A DNA stretch of 10,237 bases, taken from the IMG/VR virus record IMGVR_UViG_2778261151_000009, positions 1-10,237 of that record; one strand, 5' to 3'. The translations under genes and the position numbers were made by a program. The notes under the pieces were generated by a model, which worked only from the letters and a program-made list of their open reading frames with translations, had not been told where the DNA came from and searched no databases. Of the stretch, positions 1 through 10,237 are shown piece by piece; the stretch's first letter is position 1; every line of letters begins with the position of its first letter. Origin of the DNA: a virus (Duplodnaviria > Heunggongvirae > Uroviricota > Caudoviricetes).

Positions 1-296
1 CGCGTTGTTTCCGGTATATCGACTTTGATGTACGGGTTAATTTGTCTGGCGACAGTGGCAAGGTCTTTATTCAGGAGGGCTTTGCATTCTGCTTCGGTAT
101 ACGTTTTACCGAGCATGATGTCTTTTCCGGTGTGTCCGTGGCATACAGTCCATACGCCAACGATATCTTTGTATGGTATGTAGCTGACACCTTCCAGACC
201 ATCGTTACCACCTGGGCCAGTGATGAGCACAGACGCTATGGCAATAGCCCCACCACCAATAGCAACTGCAACAGCCTTGCGTAATGATGGCGACAT
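1..296 (-). CDS. R: SAR endolysin (phage 21 R-like lysozyme), N-terminal ~98 codons only; gene continues beyond window start
   Basis: Absent from ORF track because truncated by the window edge. Minus-strand ATG at 296-294 overlaps the holin stop (TAATG). Own translation: [98 protein letters not shown]. It has a Gly/Ala-rich weakly hydrophobic N-terminal helix (signal-anchor-release type) followed by a lysozyme-like E-x8-D-x5-T motif, and sits directly downstream of the holin. Confidence 0.85.
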
Positions 297-511
297 TATT
301 CACCTCTCGCAGCCTTACGCTTGTCTTCTCTGATTTTGAAGTACAGATTTGTCAGATAAGTCAGGAAGCCCAGAACCAGACTCCCCAGTACACCAATCGC
401 AGCCCACTGTGACGGACTGACCTGATCAAGCCACTGTAAAAACCAGTAGCCAGCACTGCCTGCGGAGGTGCCGTAGGCAATGCCCGTTGAAATTTTGTCC
501 ATGGATTTCAT
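296..511 (-). CDS. S: Class II holin / pinholin, phage 21 S-like (71 aa) with dual-start motif M1-K-S-M4
   Basis: ORF track 296..511. Protein [71 protein letters not shown] has two TM segments and a charged C-terminus. Strong SD (GGAGGTGAGG) upstream; stop overlaps endolysin start. Confidence 0.9.
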
Positions 512-803
512 AGCCTCACCTCCGCAAATAACGGATGGCGTAGTTTTACACTGAGAAATGAAAGGGATTTGAAAAGAAAAAACCGCAAAAGCGGGCGAAA
601 CGATATATACAGTAAGGAAAGCACTCTATCCAACAAACCACTCACAGTTAATCGGAATAAAAGCAGAGTGCTTATGAATGATCGCCTGCCCGAAGGTTAG
701 TATTTCTGCACAGCAATTTTGCAAAAAAAAGCGATCATTCATAACTTAAACGTCTTTCAGTCACTCCGGGATTTCCCATCATCGCAGACTGAAAGACTCT
801 AAC

Positions 804-878
<75 letters not shown>

Positions 879-881
879 ATA

Positions 882-957
<76 letters not shown>

Positions 958-959
958 AC

Positions 960-1036
960 TGGACCGCCACCGGGGACTCGAACCTCGCACACTCAACTTA
1001 AAGGGTTGACGCTCTTTCCTGATGAGCTAGTGGCGG
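960..1036 (-). tRNA. tRNA-like gene, Lys-type anticodon UUU but atypical anticodon loop (C at position 33)
   Basis: Reverse complement CCGCCACTAGCTCATCAGGAAAGAGCGTCAACCCTTTAAGTTGAGTGTGCGAGGTTCGAGTCCCCGGTGGCGGTCCA. Perfect 7-bp acceptor stem, 4-bp D stem, 5-bp anticodon stem (TCAAC/GTTGA), loop CCTTTAA, T-loop TTCGAGT, encoded CCA. Isotype uncertain. Confidence 0.55.
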
Positions 1037-1040
1037 TTGG

Positions 1041-1113
1041 TGGCCCTTGCTGGATTTGAACCAGCGACCTGGCGATTATGAGTCGCTCGCTCTCACCACT
1101 GAGCTAAAGGGCC
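1041..1113 (-). tRNA. tRNA with CAU anticodon; resembles tRNA-Ile2 (lysidine type) more than elongator tRNA-Met
   Basis: Reverse complement GGCCCTTTAGCTCAGTGGTGAGAGCGAGCGACTCATAATCGCCAGGTCGCTGGTTCAAATCCAGCAAGGGCCACCA; anticodon loop CUCAUAA. From memory the body resembles E. coli ileX-type tRNA. Confidence 0.75.
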
Positions 1114-1215
1114 GGGCGCAGGATAATAACGTTACGAAATCAATGTTGCAAGCATTCAAAAATCACCCTTATCTCCTCCACCAGCGCATTCACCATGTCT
1201 ATCCGAGATAAGTGG

Positions 1216-1244
1216 CACAAAAAACCCGCTTGTGGGCGGGTTTT
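1216..1244 (-). terminator. tR'-like intrinsic terminator downstream of the late promoter
   Basis: Hairpin ACCCGC-ttgtgg-GCGGGT (1224-1241) with A-run on plus side (U-run in minus-strand RNA) and T-run on the other side, so potentially bidirectional. About 45-70 nt downstream of the candidate pR'. Confidence 0.6.
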
Positions 1245-1289
1245 GTTTGCTTTTGCCATCACGTAAAAAATCGGCAAAATATCAGATTT

Positions 1290-1322
1290 GCATGAATATA
1301 TGCCTTTCAATCTACTTTTGCA
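1290..1322 (-). promoter_or_regulatory. Candidate late promoter pR' (-35 TTGCAA, ~16-17 bp spacer, -10 TATATT) overlapping the Q-like gene end
   Basis: Minus-strand reading ttgcaaaagtagattgaaaggcaTATATTcatg. Position between the Q-like gene and the terminator/tRNA/lysis block matches lambdoid late-region architecture. Confidence 0.45.
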
Positions 1323-1995
1323 ACACTTTGCTTTGAAAATGCCGTCTTTTTTTTGAACGTGTTCTCATTACAAACAATAAAGCCTCACTATCCAGTCGGT
1401 GAAAAATGTGTTTCATTGCAACCCAGTGACGAGTAAATGTTTTGGACCAGTTTTTAGTTGTCACTCCCGCCAGTAATGCCAGCTCCTGGTATTCATAACC
1501 TTCCCCACCAAAAAGTTCTGCTTTTACTGCCTGCGCCGCCAGCCAGATTAATTTTTTCAGGCGTTCCTGCGTTTTCCCTGCAATTTTTCTGGTACCGGAT
1601 TGAGCATTAAATTCATTCCACGCCCACTGTGTTATCGCGATCTGATATTCCCAACAAATACTCCCGCTGTAACACCACAACAACCAGGCTTTATGATGTT
1701 CTTCAAGAGACAGAACAGCCCGCCGCCACGATGATGTCGAAAACTCAACCGGACTGACCAGAGGAATTGACGTCCCCTTCGCCAGCGATTGCTTTCCCGG
1801 GATTGGTGGATTATCCCGCGTTATCATTTTTCCAGTCACTTCATCGCGGTACCGGATTTTTTTACGCCTGTAACGCCCTGTATCGAACATGGCATTCTCT
1901 TGCCAGGCTTCAAGCTGACCTTTTGTTGCCCCACTCAAATCAGCGGTGGCGATAATGAGCTGCTCACGCACAAACTGTAAATACTGGTTATTCAT
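1312..1995 (-). CDS. Putative late-gene antiterminator Q-like protein (227 aa from ATG at 1995; family assignment by position)
   Basis: ORF track 1312..2001 (its first codon is GTG). ATG at 1995-1993 overlaps the rusA stop as ATGA. Located immediately upstream of the pR'-like promoter, tR' hairpin, tRNAs and the S/R cassette, downstream of rusA. No motif verified by search. Confidence 0.55.
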   Translation of the reverse strand: MNNQYLQFVREQLIIATADLSGATKGQLEAWQENAMFDTGRYRRKKIRYRDEVTGKMITRDNPPIPGKQSLAKGTSIPLVSPVEFSTSSWRRAVLSLEEHHKAWLLWCYSGSICWEYQIAITQWAWNEFNAQSGTRKIAGKTQERLKKLIWLAAQAVKAELFGGEGYEYQELALLAGVTTKNWSKTFTRHWVAMKHIFHRLDSEALLFVMRTRSKKRRHFQSKVLQK

Positions 1996-2351
1996 GCGCA
2001 CCCCAGTTCTGTGATTTTTATCCCCAGCCGCCCACCAGGAACGAGCTGACCGCGCACAATATTGATTTCATCAAACTGCTCGTCGTCTATAAGTAGTCCA
2101 GCATGCGTCAGCGCATCCAGCGGTGCCTTCAGGATATTGTCCAGGTCACGACGGCGCTTATCCGGTGGCTCTGCAATAATCTTTATCGCCAGCCTTCCGG
2201 ACAGGTTTAATTTCAGTCGCTGCTGGCGAACAATTAGCGCCACATCACGGCGATAACGCTCACCGGCTTTTGATACAGTCGCCAGTAGGTGTTCACCGTT
2301 GGCGGGTAAGGCAAAACAAATTCTATGCGTTCGGTCATTTATGCTTTCCAC
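1992..2351 (-). CDS. rusA: Holliday-junction resolvase RusA; N-terminal region apparently frameshifted (possible pseudogene or sequencing error)
   Basis: ORF track protein contains PDKRRRDLDNILKAPLDALTHAGLLIDDEQ and GGRLGIKITELG, matching the RusA catalytic core. The canonical N-terminal motif (MTERIEFVLPYPPTVNTYWR) is in another frame, starting at ATG 2338-2336 right after the upstream stop. Confidence 0.8.
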   Translation of the reverse strand: MESINDRTHRICFALPANGEHLLATVSKAGERYRRDVALIVRQQRLKLNLSGRLAIKIIAEPPDKRRRDLDNILKAPLDALTHAGLLIDDEQFDEINIVRGQLVPGGRLGIKITELGCA

Positions 2352-3397
2352 TTCAGAACACCCGAATTTCTCGCGTGCATTAAAAAACGAATCAGCAACA
2401 ACAACTGACTACCGTGTTTTTCTTCAAAATCTTTTACCCCGGCGTGTAGTTCGTTATGGCATTTACGACACAGCGGAATAACAAACAAATCGTCAGCCTT
2501 TGTTCCCATCCCTCCCAGTCCATGACCAATGATGTGGTGCGGATCATCTGCCTGATTGCCACACGTCATGCATTTCTGCGTTTTTACCCAGCGCGTGTAT
2601 ACAGGCATCTCTTCCCGTTGTGGTTTCTGGCGCTGGAGATACTGAGCCGGAGATTCCGGATCAACGGCAATGCTGACCACCGTCTCTTCCTGTGGTGGAT
2701 TCTGTTGCTGGTGGGCGTGAGGCAGCGGCGCAAGATTTTTTGTGCGCTGCTTCAGTATGCTGGTGGCGGTCTGCTCTCCCGGCACGATGTCGCTTTCACG
2801 GTACATTGAGCGGATTTTTTCCGCACGCAACCCCAGCGAACGACGTAATACCGCTTCCGGTAGCGCGTCCGCCACCTGATTGCGGACCGCCCACCAGGAT
2901 AATTCAGCCAGAGATAATTCACGCTCCTGCGTACCGCTTATTGCGTGACCGATGACGTCAATCATCCATGCTGACAGGTTTTGATGAGCAAGTTGCTCGA
3001 GTGATTCGGATGTCTGGTCACGCAACTGGTTGTCGCAGTGCCAGCACAACACCATTGCGCCGGTACCATAACGGTGAATGACGGTTTCGCTGTGATGATA
3101 ATCGCCGTGTGGCCACTGGCAGGATTTAATATGGCGCAACAGCCAGTCAGACAATGCACCAGCACCACCAGCAGCACGAATCACCCGTGCGTTACTGAAA
3201 AACGGCAGCAATGTTTTGTCTTCCACTAGCGGCTGGCGAACGGCAGGAACGACCCCGGACGGCAGATTACGCATGCTTTTCGGTTCCGGCTCCACCAGTA
3301 CCCGGGTATTGTGGAATACCGGCATGGATTCACGGCCTGGCTTAAGGACCACCAGCCCGAGTTCCGGAACCAGAACAGGTCGAAGTAATACCCGCAC
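2339..3397 (-). CDS. DUF968 / YdfU-like prophage protein with C-terminal HNH-like zinc-binding motif
   Basis: ORF track 352 aa; first codon is GTG overlapping the upstream stop. C-terminus CMTCGNQADDPHHIIGHGLGGMGTKADDLFVIPLCRKCHNELH = CxxC...HH...CxxCH...H. Position between a Rem-like gene and rusA matches Qin-type prophages. Confidence 0.7.
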   Translation of the reverse strand: MRVLLRPVLVPELGLVVLKPGRESMPVFHNTRVLVEPEPKSMRNLPSGVVPAVRQPLVEDKTLLPFFSNARVIRAAGGAGALSDWLLRHIKSCQWPHGDYHHSETVIHRYGTGAMVLCWHCDNQLRDQTSESLEQLAHQNLSAWMIDVIGHAISGTQERELSLAELSWWAVRNQVADALPEAVLRRSLGLRAEKIRSMYRESDIVPGEQTATSILKQRTKNLAPLPHAHQQQNPPQEETVVSIAVDPESPAQYLQRQKPQREEMPVYTRWVKTQKCMTCGNQADDPHHIIGHGLGGMGTKADDLFVIPLCRKCHNELHAGVKDFEEKHGSQLLLLIRFLMHARNSGVLKWKA

Positions 3398-3398
3398 A

Positions 3399-3677
3399 TT
3401 ACCTCCAGATCCGTTGCTGGAACGTGCAGGACGGACGCGGTGGCCGTTCGGAATAAGGGAGCCTGACGAAGATTATCCAGTGACGATAATCGAGACTGAG
3501 GGCTTTCTTAATCTCGTATCCGTGTCTGCGGTAGCGCTGAATCAGCCATTCAGCCTGTTCTTCGGTGCAGGGGTCGTGCTGATACCAGTCAGATTTGAAT
3601 GCATGAGAACGCCGCCCGTGCCTGCTGGCAGGGGCGGCAGAGTTATCCGAATTGTAAAATTTGGTATCGTGCGCCAT
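3399..3677 (-). CDS. Small conserved prophage protein (Rem-like position), ~92 aa from internal ATG
   Basis: ORF track gives 3399..3806, but codons 1-43 are translated through the hok terminator hairpin and U-tract (3745-3776). ATG at 3677-3675 is the first start downstream of that terminator. Start and identity uncertain. Confidence 0.45.
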   Translation of the reverse strand: MAHDTKFYNSDNSAAPASRHGRRSHAFKSDWYQHDPCTEEQAEWLIQRYRRHGYEIKKALSLDYRHWIIFVRLPYSERPPRPSCTFQQRIWR

Positions 3678-3744
3678 CTGTTTTCTCTGCTGGCGCAGCA
3701 GGTGCCAGTTGTTCAGGCTGACGGATGGATTGTAAACCAGAACG

Positions 3745-3776
3745 ACCAGAAAAAACAAAACCCGCCGAAGCGGGTT
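3745..3776 (-). terminator. Intrinsic terminator ending the hok transcript
   Basis: 7-bp stem AACCCGC / GCGGGTT (3759-3776) with CGAA tetraloop, followed on the minus strand by UUUGUUUUUUCU. Not U-rich on the plus side, so unidirectional. Confidence 0.6.
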
Positions 3777-3844
3777 AAGTGCGGGTGCGTTGAGGATGCC
3801 TGACACATCAGCGGTGGCGAGGGATTTCTCCCCCGCCGGGTCTC

Positions 3845-4000
3845 TTACTCCTCAGGTTCGTAAGCTGTGAAGACAGCGACCTCCGTCTGGCCGGTTCGGA
3901 TTCGTACCTCGCAGAGGTCTTTCCTCGTTACCAGTGCCGTCACTATGACGGTTAAACAGATGACGATAAGGGCGATTAACATCGCCTTTTGCTGCTTCAT
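3845..4000 (-). CDS. hok: Hok/Gef family type I toxin (51 aa)
   Basis: MKQQKAMLIALIVICLTVIVTALVTRKDLCEVRIRTGQTEVAVFTAYEPEE is a single TM helix plus the conserved Hok periplasmic tail. ORF track extends it in frame to an upstream ATG at 4057. Flanked by promoter, terminator and 5'/3' complementary elements. Confidence 0.9.
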   Translation of the reverse strand: MKQQKAMLIALIVICLTVIVTALVTRKDLCEVRIRTGQTEVAVFTAYEPEE

Positions 4001-4176
4001 AGCCTGCTTCTCCTTGCCTTTCGGCACGTAAGAGGCTAACCTACATGTGTTCAGCATGGATTGAGCCTCAGATTAATGTTAAGCGTCTTGCAGGACGCGT
4101 AATGTTAACTGGGGCTTTTCTCTATCTGCCTTTTGGTGTTCATGCCTGAGACAGATAGCCTCAAGCACCCGCAGTC

Positions 4177-4204
4177 ATTCTACTTAACTAAGATTTCCCT
4201 GCAA
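4177..4204 (-). promoter_or_regulatory. Candidate hok promoter (-35 TTGCAG, 16-bp spacer, -10 TAGAAT)
   Basis: Minus-strand reading tTTGCAGggaaatcttagttaagTAGAATgactgcGGGTGC. Predicted start falls right at the 5' element (4158-4172) that is complementary to the 3' end of the transcript. Confidence 0.4.
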
Positions 4205-4259
4205 ACCGTTTTTGTCCGGCACAGTAAATATCCAACTAAACCAATAGCGTTCGCTGTAT

Positions 4260-4439
4260 TTACCGCCAGTATTCAATGCACATGACCGCCATGAACACCC
4301 CTAAAAAAAGGGCATTTATATGTCCAAACATTAATATCAAAACATCAATTTTTTCCATATACCTTGCTGTGAAGATGATGGGCATACATGATGCGAACAA
4401 CCAGAACGCAACAAACAAAAACTGCAATGCGTTTTTCAT
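4260..4439 (-). CDS. Small hydrophobic membrane protein, possibly a lipoprotein (59 aa from ATG with strong SD)
   Basis: ORF track 4260..4478; Met14 (ATG 4439-4437) is preceded by AGGGGGAATA. Protein MKNALQFLFVAFWLFASCMPIIFTARYMEKIDVLILMFGHINALFLGVFMAVMCIEYWR has a signal-like N-terminus ending in a lipobox-like FASC and a second hydrophobic helix. Lies in an AT-rich island. Confidence 0.5.
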   Translation of the reverse strand: MKNALQFLFVAFWLFASCMPIIFTARYMEKIDVLILMFGHINALFLGVFMAVMCIEYWR

Positions 4440-4651
4440 TATTCCCCCTACAATCAATGTGCAATAACATTTAAACACACCTCAATTTGGCCGGACATAT
4501 AAATATCTAAACCAGAAAAAATCACTTACATAGCGTTACAAACTCTTTAGTCTAAATACTCATCGTAAAACATTCCCCATACTTATCAGTCCGTTCCGCG
4601 CCAGGTAGCTTATTGCCTTATCTGGCAACCTATAATCAGGTTTCCGCTTTT

Positions 4652-5074
4652 TCAGTTGGCTGGTCGTTTAACCGACATAGTTAACCCATTAATCTGGTTG
4701 CCGGATGCTGGTGGATTTTCGCGTTTTAGTTGTTCATAAAAGTGCACAGCTTTAACCAGTTCTTCTGATGTAACCGGGACTGGTGGGGCAGTGAATAAGG
4801 CCTGAATTTCATAGTTCGGCCTGTCGTTACAATCCTCTTTTTTCGGTACATATTTCCAGTCACCAACCCACAACTCCCCCTGAGAGTCCATAACACCTTT
4901 TTTCACGTAGCGATATCGCCACGCTATCGGCTCTGCTTCCAGCGATGCCCGTGCAATTTTGAATAACTCGCCCTCTACTCGCGCCATCCCTGAATTGGGG
5001 TGGCATTTCGTAATCGCTATTTTTAATTTGGCTTCTTCGATTAATTGTTCTTTTGTTAATTCAGTCATTTTCAT
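4652..5074 (-). CDS. Hypothetical phage protein (140 aa)
   Basis: ORF track; ATG start with second Met at codon 3. Upstream has AGGAGG followed by a CCGCC-TGAAAG-GGCGG hairpin. No family recognised. Confidence 0.6.
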   Translation of the reverse strand: MKMTELTKEQLIEEAKLKIAITKCHPNSGMARVEGELFKIARASLEAEPIAWRYRYVKKGVMDSQGELWVGDWKYVPKKEDCNDRPNYEIQALFTAPPVPVTSEELVKAVHFYEQLKRENPPASGNQINGLTMSVKRPAN

Positions 5075-5164
5075 TACCGCCCTTTCAGGCGGCCTCCTGA
5101 TGTTCTGAGGGTGCAGAAATCCCTCCGGTTAAGGATTAAATTTTATTTGCTGTGCTAAATTTAA

Positions 5165-5620
5165 TTATTCAGTTTTTATTCCTGCTCTCAAAACAGCCTC
5201 TGCCATTCTGATATCCGGATTTTCTGAAATCATCTTTTCCGGCGAGTCGCAATCACCACCACATTCAGTTATGCGTTCATGACCAAAACGAATTGTGGTT
5301 TTGTGCGCATTAATCATTTGTGTAAGCGCATCTGTCAATTCTGCAATGCGTTTGTCTTTAACTTCCAGCTCTTTCAGTAAAGCCAGTACGTCAGGATCGC
5401 TAACATCAACGACGGTTACGCGCGATTTCAGGTAATGCTCATCCGCAAAAGTTCGACCAGTTTTAAAATATCCATCATCCCCCTCACCTGTGCAGGCATA
5501 CACAATATGCGTTCTGGAAAATATGCGCTGTATCGACATTTCATCGCCACAAACAGGACATTCCGGCACCTGAATTGGTGAATAACGTTCACGTAATGCC
5601 TGGTAATTAGTCTTGCACAC
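5165..5620 (-). CDS. Hypothetical protein with zinc-ribbon-like Cys motifs and a coiled-coil segment (151 aa)
   Basis: ORF track; GTG start preceded by TTTTCAGGAGA. CPVCG...C and ECGGDCD motifs; LKELEVKDKRIAELTDALTQM heptad-like stretch. Overlaps the upstream gene by 14 nt. Confidence 0.6.
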   Translation of the reverse strand: MCKTNYQALRERYSPIQVPECPVCGDEMSIQRIFSRTHIVYACTGEGDDGYFKTGRTFADEHYLKSRVTVVDVSDPDVLALLKELEVKDKRIAELTDALTQMINAHKTTIRFGHERITECGGDCDSPEKMISENPDIRMAEAVLRAGIKTE

Positions 5621-5912
5621 TGGCTGTCTCCTGAAAAATCACCGCATGCCCCAGTTTCTCCGCCAGCGCCAGTTCTGCCTTAGCGCCTGCTGACCGCTGC
5701 CAGCCTTTCAGCATGTAAATCGCATCCACACAACGAATCATCGCCATGCAGATATCCATGTACTGCGGCTGTGTCAGCCCGTCCGGAAGTACTGCCGGGT
5801 TTAAGACGGTATGCCCTTCCCGTTTCAGTTCCTCTTCCGCATTGTGAAACGCCTCACGGTTGAAATTTTTATACCCGGTCATTGGACCGGCGATATAGAC
5901 TCTCACCCTCAC
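5607..5912 (-). CDS. DUF4406-like protein (nucleoside 2-deoxyribosyltransferase-like fold family), 101 aa
   Basis: N-terminus RVYIAGPMTGYKNFNREAFHNAEEELKREGHTVLNPA matches the characteristic YIAGPMTG...NF...F...G..V.NP signature. GTG start overlaps the upstream stop (GTGA); SD AGGAGG 7 nt upstream. Confidence 0.7.
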   Translation of the reverse strand: MRVRVYIAGPMTGYKNFNREAFHNAEEELKREGHTVLNPAVLPDGLTQPQYMDICMAMIRCVDAIYMLKGWQRSAGAKAELALAEKLGHAVIFQETASVQD

Positions 5913-6331
5913 GCCATCACCTCCTGAAAATTACCCTGATAAAACGACAATATGCGCTGCATAACTTCGCTCTTCCGGCACTCGCGACAGATTATGTTTA
6001 GGCGACTGTCGTAGCGACGTATTTCTCCGTCAGGTAATGACCAGATAAGGTCCGGATCAACCGCAGATGGTTTCTTCAGCTTTGCCCTTGAGAGCTTTTT
6101 ACGAGCATTTTGCCAGTCCTTACGCGCCTGTTCAGACGGGAATAACCCGTAACCAGAGTTGTATACATCGCCACTGGCAACCAGCTCTCTGGCCAGAATG
6201 CTCATCAGATATCTTGTTGCCCCAGTTTTAGCTTCCAGTTGTCGTAACGTCTCGCGCCCACTCTGGCGTACGAGTTCAAGAACCTGCCCTTTAATTTTTT
6301 CCCGCTCTTCTTGTGTAAAAACTTTTGCCAC
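5909..6331 (-). CDS. Hypothetical protein (140 aa), possible winged-helix N-terminus
   Basis: ORF track; GTG start with SD AGGAGGG 4 nt upstream. No Walker A motif, so not an obvious DnaC-like loader. Confidence 0.6.
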   Translation of the reverse strand: MAKVFTQEEREKIKGQVLELVRQSGRETLRQLEAKTGATRYLMSILARELVASGDVYNSGYGLFPSEQARKDWQNARKKLSRAKLKKPSAVDPDLIWSLPDGEIRRYDSRLNIICRECRKSEVMQRILSFYQGNFQEVMA

Positions 6332-6371
6332 AAGCCCTCCTGAAAATTACCTCATGACCAGAAATTAACAC

Positions 6372-7442
6372 TTACCCCCTGAAGCCCGGCGGAATTTCGT
6401 TATCCGGTTCAGAAATATGATTCACACAACGCTGGTTGTTCGTGCCGCTTACCGGGAGCAACCAGGGGTTCTCAAAATTCCGGTCCGGTCCAAAAAACGT
6501 CGTCGCTCGCTGAACAAATTCCGTTCCCGTTTTCCCGGTAGCCGCCAGGTATCTTGCGTAACGCCTCACGCCATCCAGCATGGCCTCTGGTGGCACCCCC
6601 TCGCGTAATCTGGCCTTCCAGGCACTGAAAGCGGATTTCTTCGGGTTTGCCCCGGCACGCAACGGGTACTCCCGCCAGACCTGTTCGAACACATCCGGAT
6701 AATCCACTCGTCCCACAGACTGCCCGGTGTTTTCCGGGACTACCCGATCGGCTTCCCGCTGAATGGCGGAATCGGCTTCAGGCTGCTGCAGTTGGTGTGA
6801 TTGCTCCGGACTTGCGGTCATCACCTGCTGCACAGCGCCCGAATCGGCTTTCAGCGCATACGCTGAATCGGCTTCCGGTGTCGTGCCTGCTGGCTGACCA
6901 GGATTGACGGTCTGAACATCCCCTGCCTGGTTCGTGGCGTTTTTTACGCCATGGACCATAGTGTTTTGATCTTCTTGATCTGTATCTTTATCTGTATCTT
7001 TATCTGTCGTGACTCGTCGTGACATGTGCGTGACATATCGTGACGCGCCGTGACAATCGCCATTTTGTTCCCGCTTTCTTTCCCTCTCTCGCTGCGCCCT
7101 CTTGCGCTCTGCAGGAGATTTTGCGGTTTGCGAAATATTGCCGTTGTCCTCTTTCAGCACCTGGCGTTTTTCCCATCCAGTGATTAAATCACCATCAAGT
7201 ACCCGCCCCTGCATCGTCTGCAAAATTGAATCAATTACCTCTTCTGTCACGTCGAGCGCACTTGCCAAATCTTCTGTCGTGACATCAATGTGACCTCGCG
7301 TGACATTTCGTGACGCGCTCACCAGGAGGTGGATATACACTGCCATCACTGTTGCAATTGGCTGCCCTGACACCCTGGCAATTGTTCGCCACTTAGGGTC
7401 ATTTGGCATGTCATGCCATAATCTGAGCCAGGCGTTAGCCAT
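6372..7442 (-). CDS. Putative replication initiator (O-like: N-terminal HTH, low-complexity linker, C-terminal domain) with iteron clusters inside the coding sequence
   Basis: ORF track 6372..7448 (GTG); ATG at 7442-7440 has SD AAGAGGTGA. Position after Cro-like and YdaT-like genes. Acidic repeat linker TTDKDTDKDTDQEDQ; basic stretch KRAQRERERKRE. Two clusters of CGTGAC direct repeats at helical-turn spacing inside the gene. Confidence 0.65.
   Translation of the reverse strand: MANAWLRLWHDMPNDPKWRTIARVSGQPIATVMAVYIHLLVSASRNVTRGHIDVTTEDLASALDVTEEVIDSILQTMQGRVLDGDLITGWEKRQVLKEDNGNISQTAKSPAERKRAQRERERKREQNGDCHGASRYVTHMSRRVTTDKDTDKDTDQEDQNTMVHGVKNATNQAGDVQTVNPGQPAGTTPEADSAYALKADSGAVQQVMTASPEQSHQLQQPEADSAIQREADRVVPENTGQSVGRVDYPDVFEQVWREYPLRAGANPKKSAFSAWKARLREGVPPEAMLDGVRRYARYLAATGKTGTEFVQRATTFFGPDRNFENPWLLPVSGTNNQRCVNHISEPDNEIPPGFRG
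7008..7054. repeat. Iteron-like cluster 1: five direct CGTGAC repeats at 10-11 bp spacing
   Basis: Copies start at 7008, 7018, 7029, 7039 and 7049, immediately preceded by a tandem 12-bp repeat ATCTGTATCTTT x2.5 (6978-7013). Confidence 0.6.
7246..7314. repeat. Iteron-like cluster 2: CGTGAC at 7278, 7299, 7309, variant TGTGAC at 7289, inverted copy GTCACG at 7246
   Basis: Same hexamer and 10-11 bp phasing as cluster 1, about 225 bp away, within the N-terminal coding part of the initiator gene. Confidence 0.55.
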
Positions 7443-7513
7443 ACTCACCTCTTTTGATACCGAATCTTTTTACTCACAAATTGCCGGAAGTGATCCGGTA
7501 TGAATATTGCGAG

Positions 7514-7939
7514 TCAATGCACAGCCACAATATTTCCTGCAGGGCCACCACGATTCATCTGGTTGAAACCAGCGATCGCCACTGCGACAAAATCATCAGC
7601 GTCTCTCACCAGTCGTTCCCGCGTCTCCACTAGTTCCCGAAAATAGGCTGAGCTATGGCTGCGCATTCGGGCCACCAGCAGAGGTGGCATTGCTTTTTCG
7701 ATAGCTGGTAACAACGCCTGAATTTTTTTAAGCGCATCAGGGGGGTCTTTCTCCACCCAGCGGAAAATTTTCTGAGTATTGCGAGCCAGGGCTTCCGGAT
7801 GGCTGTCGTCATACAGTTCCGGGAACGTCATTCCCAGCTCGAAATACGCTTTGGTAATTTTCGCAGCCGGTACTTTTTCGCCGTCCGGATGCGCCCAGGC
7901 ATTCATCGCCATGCGGATGTGTTCATGCTTGATTTTCAT
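7514..7939 (-). CDS. YdaT-like protein (position equivalent to CII in lambdoid early operons), 141 aa
   Basis: ORF track; ATG overlaps Cro-like stop as ATGA. Sits immediately downstream of the Cro-like gene. Family name from memory of Rac/CP-933P YdaT, not verified. Confidence 0.5.
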   Translation of the reverse strand: MKIKHEHIRMAMNAWAHPDGEKVPAAKITKAYFELGMTFPELYDDSHPEALARNTQKIFRWVEKDPPDALKKIQALLPAIEKAMPPLLVARMRSHSSAYFRELVETRERLVRDADDFVAVAIAGFNQMNRGGPAGNIVAVH

Positions 7940-8190
7940 GAATCAACTCCCATCAGCTTTTTCGTAGTAGTTTTATTCCTGCCAATAGTTAAAATTGCAT
8001 CGGCAGAAAATAATCCGTTTGATGCAAGAGCGATTTTTTCAGCGTAATTTGTTTCGCCGGTATATTCTGTGCGAGGCAATTTTCCGTTATCCATCCATTT
8101 ATAGATTGCTCTTTGGCTGACACCACAAACGTCGGCCACAACAGCAACGCGAACAGTTTTGATTACATCTTCAAGTGTTTTCTGGTTCAT
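7936..8190 (-). CDS. Cro-like HTH DNA-binding protein (84 aa from ATG 8190)
   Basis: ORF track 7936..8262, but the ATG at 8190-8188 has SD GAGGGTG 6 nt upstream. HTH signature VVADVCGVSQRAIYKWMDNGKLP. Divergent from the repressor gene. Confidence 0.7.
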   Translation of the reverse strand: MNQKTLEDVIKTVRVAVVADVCGVSQRAIYKWMDNGKLPRTEYTGETNYAEKIALASNGLFSADAILTIGRNKTTTKKLMGVDS

Positions 8191-8269
8191 ATCACCCTCA
8201 CAATGTGAACTTTGAGTACATGCTATAACAGAACTGACAGTACATTCAAGAGCGAATATCATTGAACTT
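8191..8269. promoter_or_regulatory. Divergent promoter/operator region between the Cro-like and repressor genes
   Basis: Repressor-side promoter: -35 CTGACA (8234-8239), 17-bp spacer, -10 TATCAT (8257-8262). Cro-side: -35 TTGAAT (plus 8244-8249), -10 TATAGC (plus 8222-8227). Two AACnnnnAGTACAT motifs at 8208-8221 and 8232-8245. Confidence 0.55.
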
Positions 8270-8689
8270 ATGGTTCATGAAGATAAAGCGCGTAAAGAGT
8301 TCGCCAGTAGGCTTGCGCTAGCCTGTGAAAACGCTGGTTATGAACAACATGGAAGGCAGGCAGAAATTGCCCGTCGAATGAAATTAACACCAAAAGCGGT
8401 TAGCAAATGGTTTAATGGCGAAACAATTCCTCGCCGGGAGAAATTAAGGGAATTAGCAACACTAATAGGAACAACACCAACCTATCTTTTGGGAGAGGAT
8501 ACAGAAGAAAGTGGACAGGTACGTTTCTATCAGGAGTTAAATCCAAGACAAAAAATCATCATTGACCTTCTGGACGAGCTCCCTGACAGTGAGACAGATG
8601 AACTTTTAAAAACTCTTGAAGAGAAAAAACAGAAGTACAATGCAATTTACGAAGAGTTAGCACGAAAGAAAAAACAAAAAGCCTCTTAA
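8270..8689 (+). CDS. CI/DicA-like XRE-family repressor lacking a peptidase domain (139 aa)
   Basis: ORF track; HTH GRQAEIARRMKLTPKAVSKWFNGETIP; C-terminal acidic/coiled segment. Divergent from Cro-like gene. No SD, with -10 placed about 7 nt before the ATG, suggesting a leaderless mRNA. Confidence 0.8.
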   Translation: MVHEDKARKEFASRLALACENAGYEQHGRQAEIARRMKLTPKAVSKWFNGETIPRREKLRELATLIGTTPTYLLGEDTEESGQVRFYQELNPRQKIIIDLLDELPDSETDELLKTLEEKKQKYNAIYEELARKKKQKAS

Positions 8690-8759
8690 ACCAGCATAAA
8701 TCCGGTAGCGCCTTCCTCCGGGTTTGTGCTTCACTTTATCCCATCTCATTTTTTTACAC

Positions 8760-8810
8760 ACAAAATGTACTATAAGTACTTTACAACAATGAACGCAAAG
8801 TACATTATAT
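8760..8810 (+). promoter_or_regulatory. Operator/promoter region upstream of the ydfA-like operon
   Basis: Near-palindrome ATGTACT-ATA-AGTACTT (8764-8780) and AACgcaaAGTACAT (8791-8804) overlap a candidate promoter (-35 TTTACA 8779-8784, -10 CATTAT about 8802-8807). Confidence 0.45.
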
Positions 8811-8986
8811 ACCTGCCACCCACCCCGCCCCACAGAATGCAGGGCAATACTTCGAGTTACCAGGCAGTGGTCAGGGGTTAAGTAGCCAGCCCGAGGCGTA
8901 AGAACATGACGGCAGGGTTCAACTTTAATAACTATGCAGCAGGTTTTTGTTCCGCTACCCCGGCGTTAAGGGGAAATGAGGTCAGC

Positions 8987-9142
8987 ATGGATACTATCGA
9001 TCTTGGCAACAACGAATCTCTGGTGTACGGCGTGTTTCCCAACCAGGACGGCACCTTCACCGCAATGACGTATACCAAAAGCAAAACGTTTAAAACCGAA
9101 TCTGGAGCGCGTCGCTGGCTGGAAAGAAATTCAGGTGGGTGA
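8987..9142 (+). CDS. ydfA: YdfA-like small protein (51 aa)
   Basis: Internal ATG of ORF track 8906..9142 with SD GAGGT 4 nt upstream. Protein MDTIDLGNNESLVYGVFPNQDGTFTAMTYTKSKTFKTESGARRWLERNSGG. Size and position after the DicA-like repressor match Qin ydfA (from memory). Confidence 0.6.
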   Translation: MDTIDLGNNESLVYGVFPNQDGTFTAMTYTKSKTFKTESGARRWLERNSGG

Positions 9143-9143
9143 T

Positions 9144-9272
9144 ATGGATTTCGACACAATCATGGAAAAGGCTTACGAAGAATACTTCGAAGGCCTTGCC
9201 GAAGGCGAAGAAGCTCTCAGCTTCAGCGAATTTAAACAGGCGCTTTCCAGTTCGGCAAAATCTAACGGCTGA
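9144..9272 (+). CDS. ydfB: YdfB-like small protein (42 aa)
   Basis: Not in ORF track (too short). ATG 9144 with SD AGGTGGG; own translation MDFDTIMEKAYEEYFEGLAEGEEALSFSEFKQALSSSAKSNG. Start 1 nt after the ydfA-like stop. Confidence 0.6.
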   Translation: MDFDTIMEKAYEEYFEGLAEGEEALSFSEFKQALSSSAKSNG

Positions 9273-9300
9273 TAAGCGAAACAGCACGCGAGGAATCAGT

Positions 9301-9411
9301 ATGCAGAAACGAGAACCCGTCATCATCGCGCCAGACTATACCGATGATGAACTTTATGAGTGGATTTTGGCGGCATCAGTTTCATTGCTGGCTGATGTCC
9401 GCCCTTTTTAA
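9301..9411 (+). CDS. YdfC-like short ORF (36 aa), uncertain; its 3' end is the DicF-like hairpin
   Basis: ATG 9301 with SD GAGGAA; own translation MQKREPVIIAPDYTDDELYEWILAASVSLLADVRPF. The coding sequence runs through the terminator hairpin, so it may be truncated or partly non-coding. Confidence 0.35.
   Translation: MQKREPVIIAPDYTDDELYEWILAASVSLLADVRPF
9357..9409 (+). ncRNA. dicF: DicF-like sRNA (processed 3' end of the ydfABC transcript) with intrinsic terminator
   Basis: GGCGGCATCAG...CTGATGTCCGCC hairpin (9369-9403) followed by TTTTT. Sequence and position after ydfC resemble E. coli DicF (from memory); 5' end not determinable here. Confidence 0.55.
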
Positions 9412-9591
9412 AGTGAATTTTGTGATGCGGTGAATGCGGCTCAGCGCACGCGGAACAGTTAAAACAGTAAGGAAAATCCCTTATTCCGGCGTTAATTATT
9501 AACTGGTTAACGTCACCTGGAGGCACCAGGCACCGCATCAACAAAGTTCACTTCGGTGATGAAAGGTAAGAGAAAATGTTGAATGTAGCTA

Positions 9592-9703
9592 TTGAAAACC
9601 AGAACGGGTGGAATTATAGTGCACCTGCACCTCATAAAACGGGTGCCGGGCGTGGAAACCCGAAATCATTCACGGCGCATAACCGCGCTCAGGCGGTTTT
9701 TTT
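9592..9703 (+). promoter_or_regulatory. Promoter-terminator unit: -35 TTGAAA (9592-9597), 17 bp, -10 TATAGT (9615-9620); terminator hairpin ACCGC-gctcag-GCGGT plus T7 (9682-9703)
   Basis: Near-consensus sigma70 elements followed about 60-75 nt later by a stem-loop and seven T. Could be a small RNA or an attenuating leader for the Rha-family gene. Confidence 0.4.
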
Positions 9704-9872
9704 ATGCGTTAAGCACAGCCACATTCGCATTATGGTGGGGCGTGCAGGGCAACCGCAAGGCTGGCCGGGTTCCGTGATGACCGGTATTTCCACCCCTGTA
9801 CGTCTCACCACCCTTATGGTCGTGGAAAACCTCGGTGGTGAGTTAATCAAATTCATCGCGGAGGCTGCCATC

Positions 9873-10237
9873 ATGGCTACTATCCTTACCCTTTCTCACC
9901 CTGACGTAACCATCGAAAATGGTCGCGCTGTCACTACGTCTGTTGCGATCGCCGAGTTCTTTGGCAAACGCCACGAACGAGTGTTGGATAAAATTCGCAA
10001 TCTGGACTGTTCAGCAAAATTCACTGAGCACAATTTTGTGTCGAGCGAATACACCGACTCAACCGGGCGCAAACTCCCAATGTACCAAATCACCAAAAAC
10101 GGCTTCGTTTTCCTGGTGATGGGCTTCACGGGCAAAAAAGCCGCCGCATTCAAAGAGGCATACATTGCTGAGTTCGACCGCATGGAGGCCGAACTGCGCC
10201 AGAATAACACCCCACCTGCTGACAAGATGATTCCGGG
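9873..10237 (+). CDS. rha: Rha-family phage regulatory protein, N-terminal part; gene continues beyond window end
   Basis: Absent from ORF track (no stop in window). ATG 9873 with SD GGAGG 8 nt upstream. Own translation MATILTLSHPDVTIENGRAVTTSVAIAEFFGKRHERVLDKIRNLDCSAKFTEHNFVSSEYTDSTGRKLPMYQITKNGFVFLVMGFTGKKAAAFKEAYIAEFDRMEAELRQ matches the pRha domain signature. Confidence 0.75.
   Translation, partial: MATILTLSHPDVTIENGRAVTTSVAIAEFFGKRHERVLDKIRNLDCSAKFTEHNFVSSEYTDSTGRKLPMYQITKNGFVFLVMGFTGKKAAAFKEAYIAEFDRMEAELRQNNTPPADKMIP

Follow-up and report, generated by a model that had tools for sequence, protein, structure and literature searches.

Why should neighbouring genes of a prophage that are unrelated to each other be joined by the same short sequence, and does this sequence do more than start translation? 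We addressed the question in the IMG/VR virus record IMGVR_UViG_2778261151_000009 (Caudoviricetes), whose positions 1 to 10,237 (10,237 nucleotides (nt), here referred to as the window) are part of a Rac/Qin-type lambdoid prophage of Escherichia coli, with the early-right operon on the minus strand. A 16-mer occurs there twice exactly and a third time in degenerate form, each time shortly before the GTG start of a small gene. Overall, we consider it probable that the best explanation is a conserved junction, which is both a ribosome-binding site and a seam for the exchange of gene cassettes. The three copies would then represent one and the same inter-gene junction, in the run of accessory genes behind the replication gene in a Rac-type lambdoid prophage.

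Three copies of a short repeat

The 16-mer CCTCCTGAAAATTACC was found by exact search at 5920-5935 and 6336-6351, which confirms the initial annotation of this DNA. On the minus (coding) strand it reads GGTAATTTTCAGGAGG, that is, a U-rich leader and a Shine-Dalgarno (SD) sequence. A degenerate third copy, CTCCTGAAAAATCACC, differs from it by two substitutions and one extra T; it had rightly been listed as a variant, but its position is 5628-5643 and not 5626-5641, 2 nt off. The core TTTTCAGGAG is present exactly three times in the window, always on the minus strand, and a search of both strands of the window with up to three mismatches gave no further match to the 16-mer (0.04 expected). Chance repetition had been called unlikely, and this was borne out: none of 200 dinucleotide shuffles produced two or more hits of the 16-mer, and merely 6 of 500 such shuffles of the window contained any exact direct repeat of at least 16 nt. 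In fact, the 16-mer is the longest dispersed exact repeat of the window, exceeded only by an 18-nt tandem run of period 12 in the O-like gene. As for the 30-nt leaders of the operon, those of lygF and the DUF4406 gene share the 16-nt exact string, each of them shares 10 nt with the leader of the ead gene, and the best of the other pairs share at most 8 nt.

The gene layout was taken from the list of open reading frames (ORFs) and from the annotation that the Prokaryotic Genome Annotation Pipeline (PGAP) gives for an E. coli locus of 97.6% identity, where the coding sequences of lygF, the DUF4406 gene and the ead-like gene have the same lengths of 423, 306 and 456 nt. Both sources agree with the GTG starts given before, at 6331, 5912 and 5620. 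The copy at 6336-6351 (minus strand) is intergenic, between the O-like gene and lygF, with its SD sequence 4 nt before the lygF GTG. The DUF977/LygF gene itself (5909-6331, minus strand; GTG start 6329-6331) is the cassette bracketed by both exact copies, and the start of the following gene overlaps the TGA stop at 5909-5911 (GTGA). The other exact copy (5920-5935, minus strand) was said to lie in the coding end of the upstream gene (GNFQEV), and it indeed forms the last DUF977/LygF codons, G-N-F-Q-E, in a protein that ends ...YQGNFQEVMA*. With the next 4 nt it makes a 10-nt SD sequence (AGGAGGTGAT), placed 7 nt before the GTG (5910-5912) of the DUF4406 gene. This gene (5607-5912, minus strand) is nucleoside 2-deoxyribosyltransferase-like and overlaps the following one by 14 nt. 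The degenerate copy (5628-5643, minus strand; GGTGATTTTTCAGGAG) occupies its last codons (V-I-F-Q-E), and the SD sequence of this copy is 7 nt before the GTG (5618-5620) of an ead/Ea22-like gene (5165-5620, minus strand), the final cassette of the overlapping run in the window.

The junctions on the coding strand are therefore GGTAATTTTCAGGAGG-GCTT-GTG for lygF, GGTAATTTTCAGGAGG-TGATGGC-GTG for DUF4406 and GGTGATTTTTCAGGAG-ACAGCCA-GTG for ead. The two coding copies specify ...GNFQE and ...VIFQE in the same frame, within two unrelated preceding genes. Since the ribosome-binding site is placed inside the previous gene, the previous protein ends in ...FQE plus a short tail from the next start region.

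Homology breakpoints at the junctions

We analyzed where relatives lose homology to the window in two protein-anchored samples, with 80 LygF loci and 80 DUF4406 loci. Among the LygF-anchored relatives, homology is lost at 5905-5924 in 67 of the 80, at 6330-6344 in 18 and at 6430-6434 in 37; among the DUF4406-anchored ones it is lost at 5615-5629 in 53 of the 80. Homology of most relatives with the window thus stops within about 20 nt of the motif copies, and the copy at 5920-5935 is the main breakpoint. The same region was searched in complete E. coli genomes, and 4,262 records (4,237 of 5,426 genomes, about 78%) match window positions 5420-6560, while 80% or more of this arrangement is covered in only 171 of them. 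We then took 60 records evenly spaced down the ranking of the 4,262. Their internal low-coordinate ends fall at 5918-5935 (43 of 58), 5908 (4) and 5628 (5), together 52 of 58, and their internal high-coordinate ends at 6330-6346 (13 of 37), 5906-5915 (3) and 6433/6434 (20). Moreover, the match of the phages Tritos, Evi and 204576 begins at 5934/5935, and vB_EcoS-683R6 matches 5936-6340 only, that is, lygF alone between both copies.

The joint at 6430-6434 is also sharp, but it is intragenic, about 20 codons before the stop of the O-like gene at 6372, so the last 20 or so O-like codons travel with lygF and not with the rest of O. When about 100 distinct junction sequences were compared position by position, conservation was high across the motif, dipped in the spacer, recovered at GTGAG and then collapsed. 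Gene boundaries in homologues thus coincide with the motif, and non-homologous genes follow the same junction, in agreement with the initial annotation, which had proposed a module-exchange junction. The data support the conclusion that the motif marks exchange points as a pattern; marking, not causation, is what they show.

Conservation of the junction and diversity of the cassettes

In relatives the junction consists of TTT(T/C)CAGGAG(G/A), a spacer of 6-7 nt and GTGAG(T/C/G), with 4 nt before the lygF start. Across hundreds of IMG/VR contigs and about 4,200 E. coli genomes, LygF and DUF4406 are each followed, through this junction (TTTYCAGGAGR-N6-7-GTGAG), by at least six downstream genes that are not homologous to one another. 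At least 119 IMG/VR contigs contain the exact 16-mer; 143 of its occurrences were examined, and 89 are the lygF leader and 51 the lygF 3' end. Among 154 distinct lygF alleles, it is found on the 5' side in 74, on the 3' side in 75 and at both ends in 26. Variants of the lygF leader (GGTGATTTTTCAGGAGG, GAAGTAATTTCAGGAGG) are kept behind at least three unrelated upstream genes, as well as in alleles only 41-55% identical in protein, and the leader of the YdaW-linked lygF (AGTGATTGCCGGAGG) is without the U-run. The GGTGATTTTTCAGGAGG leader before lygF had suggested a DUF4406-then-lygF order, but the upstream gene is actually a different P-like gene.

The genes found after LygF include DUF4406, a DNA methyltransferase, phrog_4030 ('MSESKCQ'), several ead-like genes, 'MSNQWRPD' and others, and those found after DUF4406 include the window's ead type, other ead-like genes, phrog_667, phrog_1372, phrog_4030 and 'MSNQWRPD'; two families occur downstream of either. 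In 147 loci we obtained 19 different cassette chains from 13 families; the script for these chains mis-picked some starts (ATGCAG inside DUF4406), and its edge list was used for architecture counts only. The core is also found behind a different P-like gene and at an unrelated gene ending in GIFQE, and other cassettes end in weaker forms of the seam, such as AAGGAGACAACCA-GTGAGC. The short tail after FQE varies with the downstream gene (ETASVQD, EVAQ, EANSE, EEVQ, EATSEQH and so on), because its codons come from the start region of the next gene, in another reading frame.

A conserved non-coding stretch at 5075-5164 (minus strand; TTAAATTTAGCAC...CCTTAACCGGAGGGA; TAATTAAATTTAGCAC...AATCCTTAACCGGAGGGA) closes the cassette run. 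It follows several different last cassettes in relatives, and the ends of high-scoring segment pairs pile up at about 5170. A sigma-70-like match, TTGAGA-16-AATAAT (5191-5164), is situated at the beginning of this stretch, and a GC hairpin (GGCCGCCTGAAAGGGCGG) stands just before the ATG at 5074.

The scan of genome contigs for LygF gave only 13 close loci. LygF loci 90-94% identical to the window also turned up in genomes assembled from metagenomes under the labels Collinsella, Bacillota and Veillonella parvula; most likely, these contigs are E. coli prophage sequences placed in the wrong bin.

A probable role in translation initiation

Judged from sequence and annotation, the copies are likely the ribosome-binding sites of the following genes, which is a conventional role. 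On the mRNA, the junction would provide the next gene with a U-rich leader, a strong SD sequence and a GTG start. AGGAG(G) stands before all three annotated GTGs, as had been claimed, although the degenerate copy supplies TTTTCAGGAGA and not ...GGAGG. The spacings between SD sequence and start are 4 nt (lygF), 7 nt (DUF4406) and 7 nt (ead), all within 4-9 nt, and the predicted pairing with the 3' end of 16S rRNA amounts to -10.8, -17.7 and -7.4 kcal/mol, respectively. The copy before DUF4406 is predicted to form a 10-bp duplex with the 16S 3' end, the strongest in the operon. The view of the repeat as a translation-initiation cassette is hence supported by our data; the word "duplicated" used with it applies to repeated copies and not to a demonstrated recent duplication.

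Translation is probably coupled at two of the three junctions, because there the start overlaps the end of the previous gene, with the GTGA stop/start overlap at 5909-5912 and the 14-nt gene overlap at 5607-5620. The O-like gene and lygF are separated by 40 nt, which leaves this pair aside. The junctions resemble an SD site with translational coupling in their AGGAGG complementarity to the 16S 3' end, the 4-7 nt spacing and these overlaps. However, a 16-nt identity between neighbouring genes is unexpected for ordinary ribosome-binding sites, and here it is conserved together with the GTGAG of unrelated downstream genes. For annotation, the junction is of use with several poorly characterised genes of prophages, whose GTG starts it fixes and whose variable C-terminal tails it accounts for. 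At the three sites, RNA structure did not rise above shuffled controls (z = 0.84, -0.56, 0.21), no promoter or terminator match was found, and no Rfam family was found either, the Rfam matches of the window (tRNAs, sok, C4, isrK) all being elsewhere.

Does the junction promote exchange?

In DNA, the junction would be the seam where prophages exchange cassettes, and if the exchange is in register, the gene on the upstream side would keep its reading frame and the one on the downstream side its translation signal. With 16 nt of exact identity, or about 30 nt when mismatches are allowed, the short shared sequence may further help recombination rather than merely survive it. Pointing in this direction are the identity beyond what ribosome binding needs (GGTAA, and 16 of 16 positions between an intergenic leader and a coding end), the recurrence of the motif at the ends of non-homologous genes, and spacer subtypes that track the right-hand gene, which fit crossovers in the core.

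Several observations weigh against such a role, and part of them speak for a simpler account, in which the motif is a translation signal only, belonging to the LygF and DUF4406 3' ends and the lygF leader, and the joints are what selection for intact genes leaves of random recombination, illegitimate or by microhomology (the Hendrix model). With 16 bp, the repeat falls short of the lengths quoted as the minimum for efficient pairing, which are 23-27 bp for Red-beta and 31-34 bp for RecA (PMC3945230). Mosaic joints are equally sharp at borders that have no motif (about 5170, 5060-5070, 7520 and 7940-7950) and inside the O-like gene (6434), so exchange at gene borders can do without the motif. 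Spacer classes go with the left gene (TGATGGC-like for LygF, CAACCA-like for DUF4406); this would place some crossovers at or after GTGAG, with about 5 nt of identity only, and not within the 16-mer. Recombinants between copies were not found: the junction of a lygF deletion (O-leader, motif and DUF4406; CATGAGGTAATTTTCAGGAGGTGRTG) and the tandem lygF junction both had 0 hits in IMG/VR, and the recombinant-specific pattern had 3 hits in JGI metagenome contigs, all in unrelated low-GC contexts. In addition, lygF of Tritos-type relatives diverges just before the motif, and the motif is mostly part of the shared LygF/DUF4406 3' end, so that its presence from LygF to any given partner is not independent evidence. 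Yet ribosome binding needs just AGGAGG and perhaps the U-run, which leaves the GGTAA identity and the full match between leader and coding end unexplained; lambda's own ren/nin leaders share no more than 8 nt; and the motif recurs not only at non-homologous gene ends but also in the lygF leader behind three different upstream genes. On balance, we regard translation alone, with joints made at random, as a somewhat unlikely account of the locus.

Other explanations fare much worse. Direct repeats that bracket a single small gene, a very high diversity of neighbours, and genes for RusA and for a DUF968 protein of the HNH type about 2.5-4 kb downstream might suggest that a dedicated enzyme, such as a nuclease or a site-specific recombinase, mobilises cassettes at this site (compare integron attC and the targets of homing endonucleases). 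This is very improbable, as the site is without hairpin or inverted repeat, no integrase is encoded in the window, precise excision or duplication products were not found in two very large collections (IMG/VR and JGI metagenome contigs), the crossover points spread over about 30 nt instead of being fixed, and DUF968 and RusA are ordinary nin-region genes. It is equally improbable that the motif is a regulatory element of the RNA, be it a programmed frameshift signal, an RNase site or the target of a protein or small RNA. Within coding regions, ribosomes could pause at a U-run with an SD-like sequence behind it, and the window does contain small-RNA genes (sok, C4, isrK); but structure and Rfam searches at the sites were negative as described above, no complementary sequence was found elsewhere on either strand of the window, and no alternative-frame ORF continues past the sites. 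Frameshifting in particular cannot be the common function, since one copy is intergenic. As for the chance repetition of a meaningless 16-mer, a repeat of this length does turn up in the few shuffles mentioned above, but all three copies have the same strand and the same position relative to consecutive starts, and hundreds of contigs and many alleles keep this arrangement; the conservation data already refute it.

We thus retain the conserved junction with both functions. It could be carried one step further, to an evolved, recombination-ready linker, in which the seam of about 30 nt (SD, spacer, GTGAG), with the 16-nt exact core in it, is kept similar across unrelated cassettes for in-register swaps by single-strand-annealing recombinases. 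Rac-like prophages encode such recombinases of the RecT/Red-beta type. We offer this extension as an unlikely, tentative one. On the same tentative footing, the run at the ren/nin position would be a promoter-less and integrase-free cassette system that shuffles anti-host or defence-related genes, for example a Ren-like exclusion protein, a DNA methyltransferase and a deoxyribosyltransferase-like enzyme. The locus is a compact natural test case: the junction is well defined (11-16 nt), occurs in about 78% of complete E. coli genomes and has dozens of right-hand partners, and its coding effect, the FQE tail, can be scored easily. Should it not promote exchange, it would be a well-conserved ribosome-binding site of local interest only.

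Comparison with known systems

Short conserved sequences at gene borders that target recombination in lambdoid phages were proposed by Susskind & Botstein 1978, and Clark et al. 2001 supported the boundary-sequence idea for phage HK620 (both as summarised in PMC3233612); the rival model is illegitimate recombination followed by selection (PMC3233612, PMC3974807, PMC3945230). The junction studied here is like these boundary sequences in being short, common to junctions of unrelated genes, placed at gene borders and coincident with mosaic breakpoints. It is shared by the O-like/lygF, lygF/DUF4406 and DUF4406/ead junctions, its copies end 4-7 nt before annotated starts, and breakpoints coincide with it in the anchored relatives, the E. 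coli ends and the phage hits at 5934-5936 and 6340. It differs in being located in the early-right operon after the replication gene and in being partly coding, as it forms the FQE C-termini of two unrelated proteins. The literature search found no description of this motif, and the consensus of Clark et al. 2001 lay outside the comparison. As these descriptive features agree and no description was found, we class the junction as a new instance of lambdoid boundary sequences. Boundary sequences have long been proposed in mosaic phage genomes, and the locus is a clear, fairly ordinary example of them.

At 3510-3550 (minus strand) of HK620 (AF335538), ...GGAGGCAGCCA-GTGAGCAAGATTGACTAT stands before the eaD-like gene hkaG, with the SD-spacer-GTGAG form of the ead-like cassettes here. 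The TTTTCAGGAG core, however, is absent from the HK620 genome, and this comparison rests on the HK620 genome sequence. The neighbouring leader before hkaF is GGCATTCGCATCAAAGGAGAGTGAG, and the hkaG and hkaF leaders are near-identical to the ead-like cassette junctions of Rac-type loci; the latter sit in the early-right operon, opposite to that of HK620 hkaG/hkaF.

The lambda ren-nin region has the same map position, small same-strand genes, overlapping stop and start codons, and RusA and a Q-like gene downstream; LygF, moreover, hits a PHROG annotated 'Ren-like exclusion protein' (phrog_142), and DUF4406 matches a nucleoside 2-deoxyribosyltransferase PHROG. From gene order and the phrog_142 match, the junctions are at lambda's ren/nin position. 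In lambda, however, the 30-nt leaders share at most 8 nt, which is the level of the SD sequence, in contrast to 16 nt here, and the gene families are different ones (here DUF977, DUF4406 and ead/Ea22-like). Integron cassettes with attC are similar in their small, promoter-less, same-strand genes, very variable content and recurring short separator. They differ in that the junction here is a ribosome-binding site inside coding sequence, with crossovers that are not fixed and no excision products found. An attC-type inverted repeat was not seen, as the 16-mer is no palindrome and shuffled sequences fold just as well, and neither the window nor the 12.9-kb homologous locus has an integron integrase among its ORFs or annotated genes.

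Gene context and other features of the window

Between the replication genes and the Q-like antiterminator there is a run of small same-strand genes (O-like, LygF, DUF4406, ead-like ... DUF968, RusA, Q-like). According to the ORF list and annotation, a cI-like repressor (8270-8689) is encoded on the plus strand, and a cro-like gene (7936-8262) and a YdaT-like gene (7514-7939) on the minus strand; the O-like phage replisome organizer (6372-7448, minus strand) is upstream of the cassette run. A 140-aa gene (4652-5074, minus strand) is followed downstream, in order, by a hok/sok module, DUF968, RusA, the Q-like gene (annotated DUF1133) and four tRNA genes.

The tRNA genes, downstream of the Q-like gene, are in tandem at 804-1113 on the minus strand (Gly-tcc, Thr-tgt, Lys-ttt, Met-cat). 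The sok antitoxin RNA (Rfam RF01794, 118.9 bits; 3995-4170, minus strand) overlaps a hok-like ORF at 3845-4057, and the pair is a type I toxin-antitoxin module within the nin-like region, with hokD annotated in the homologous locus. To the left of the immunity region, the Hfq-binding RNA isrK and the C4 antisense RNA are adjacent on the plus strand at 9627-9703 and 9728-9815 (Rfam, 67.7 and 76.3 bits, respectively). The 18-nt exact tandem run of the O-like gene is situated at 6978-6995 with a unit of 12 nt (ATCTGTATCTTT, encoding DKDTDKDTD), and the same gene contains two imperfect direct-repeat pairs of 36-39 nt (7016-7054/7276-7314 and 6747-6782/6843-6878), one of which is GTGAC-rich. These repeats inside the O-like gene may be origin iterons, as in lambda O.

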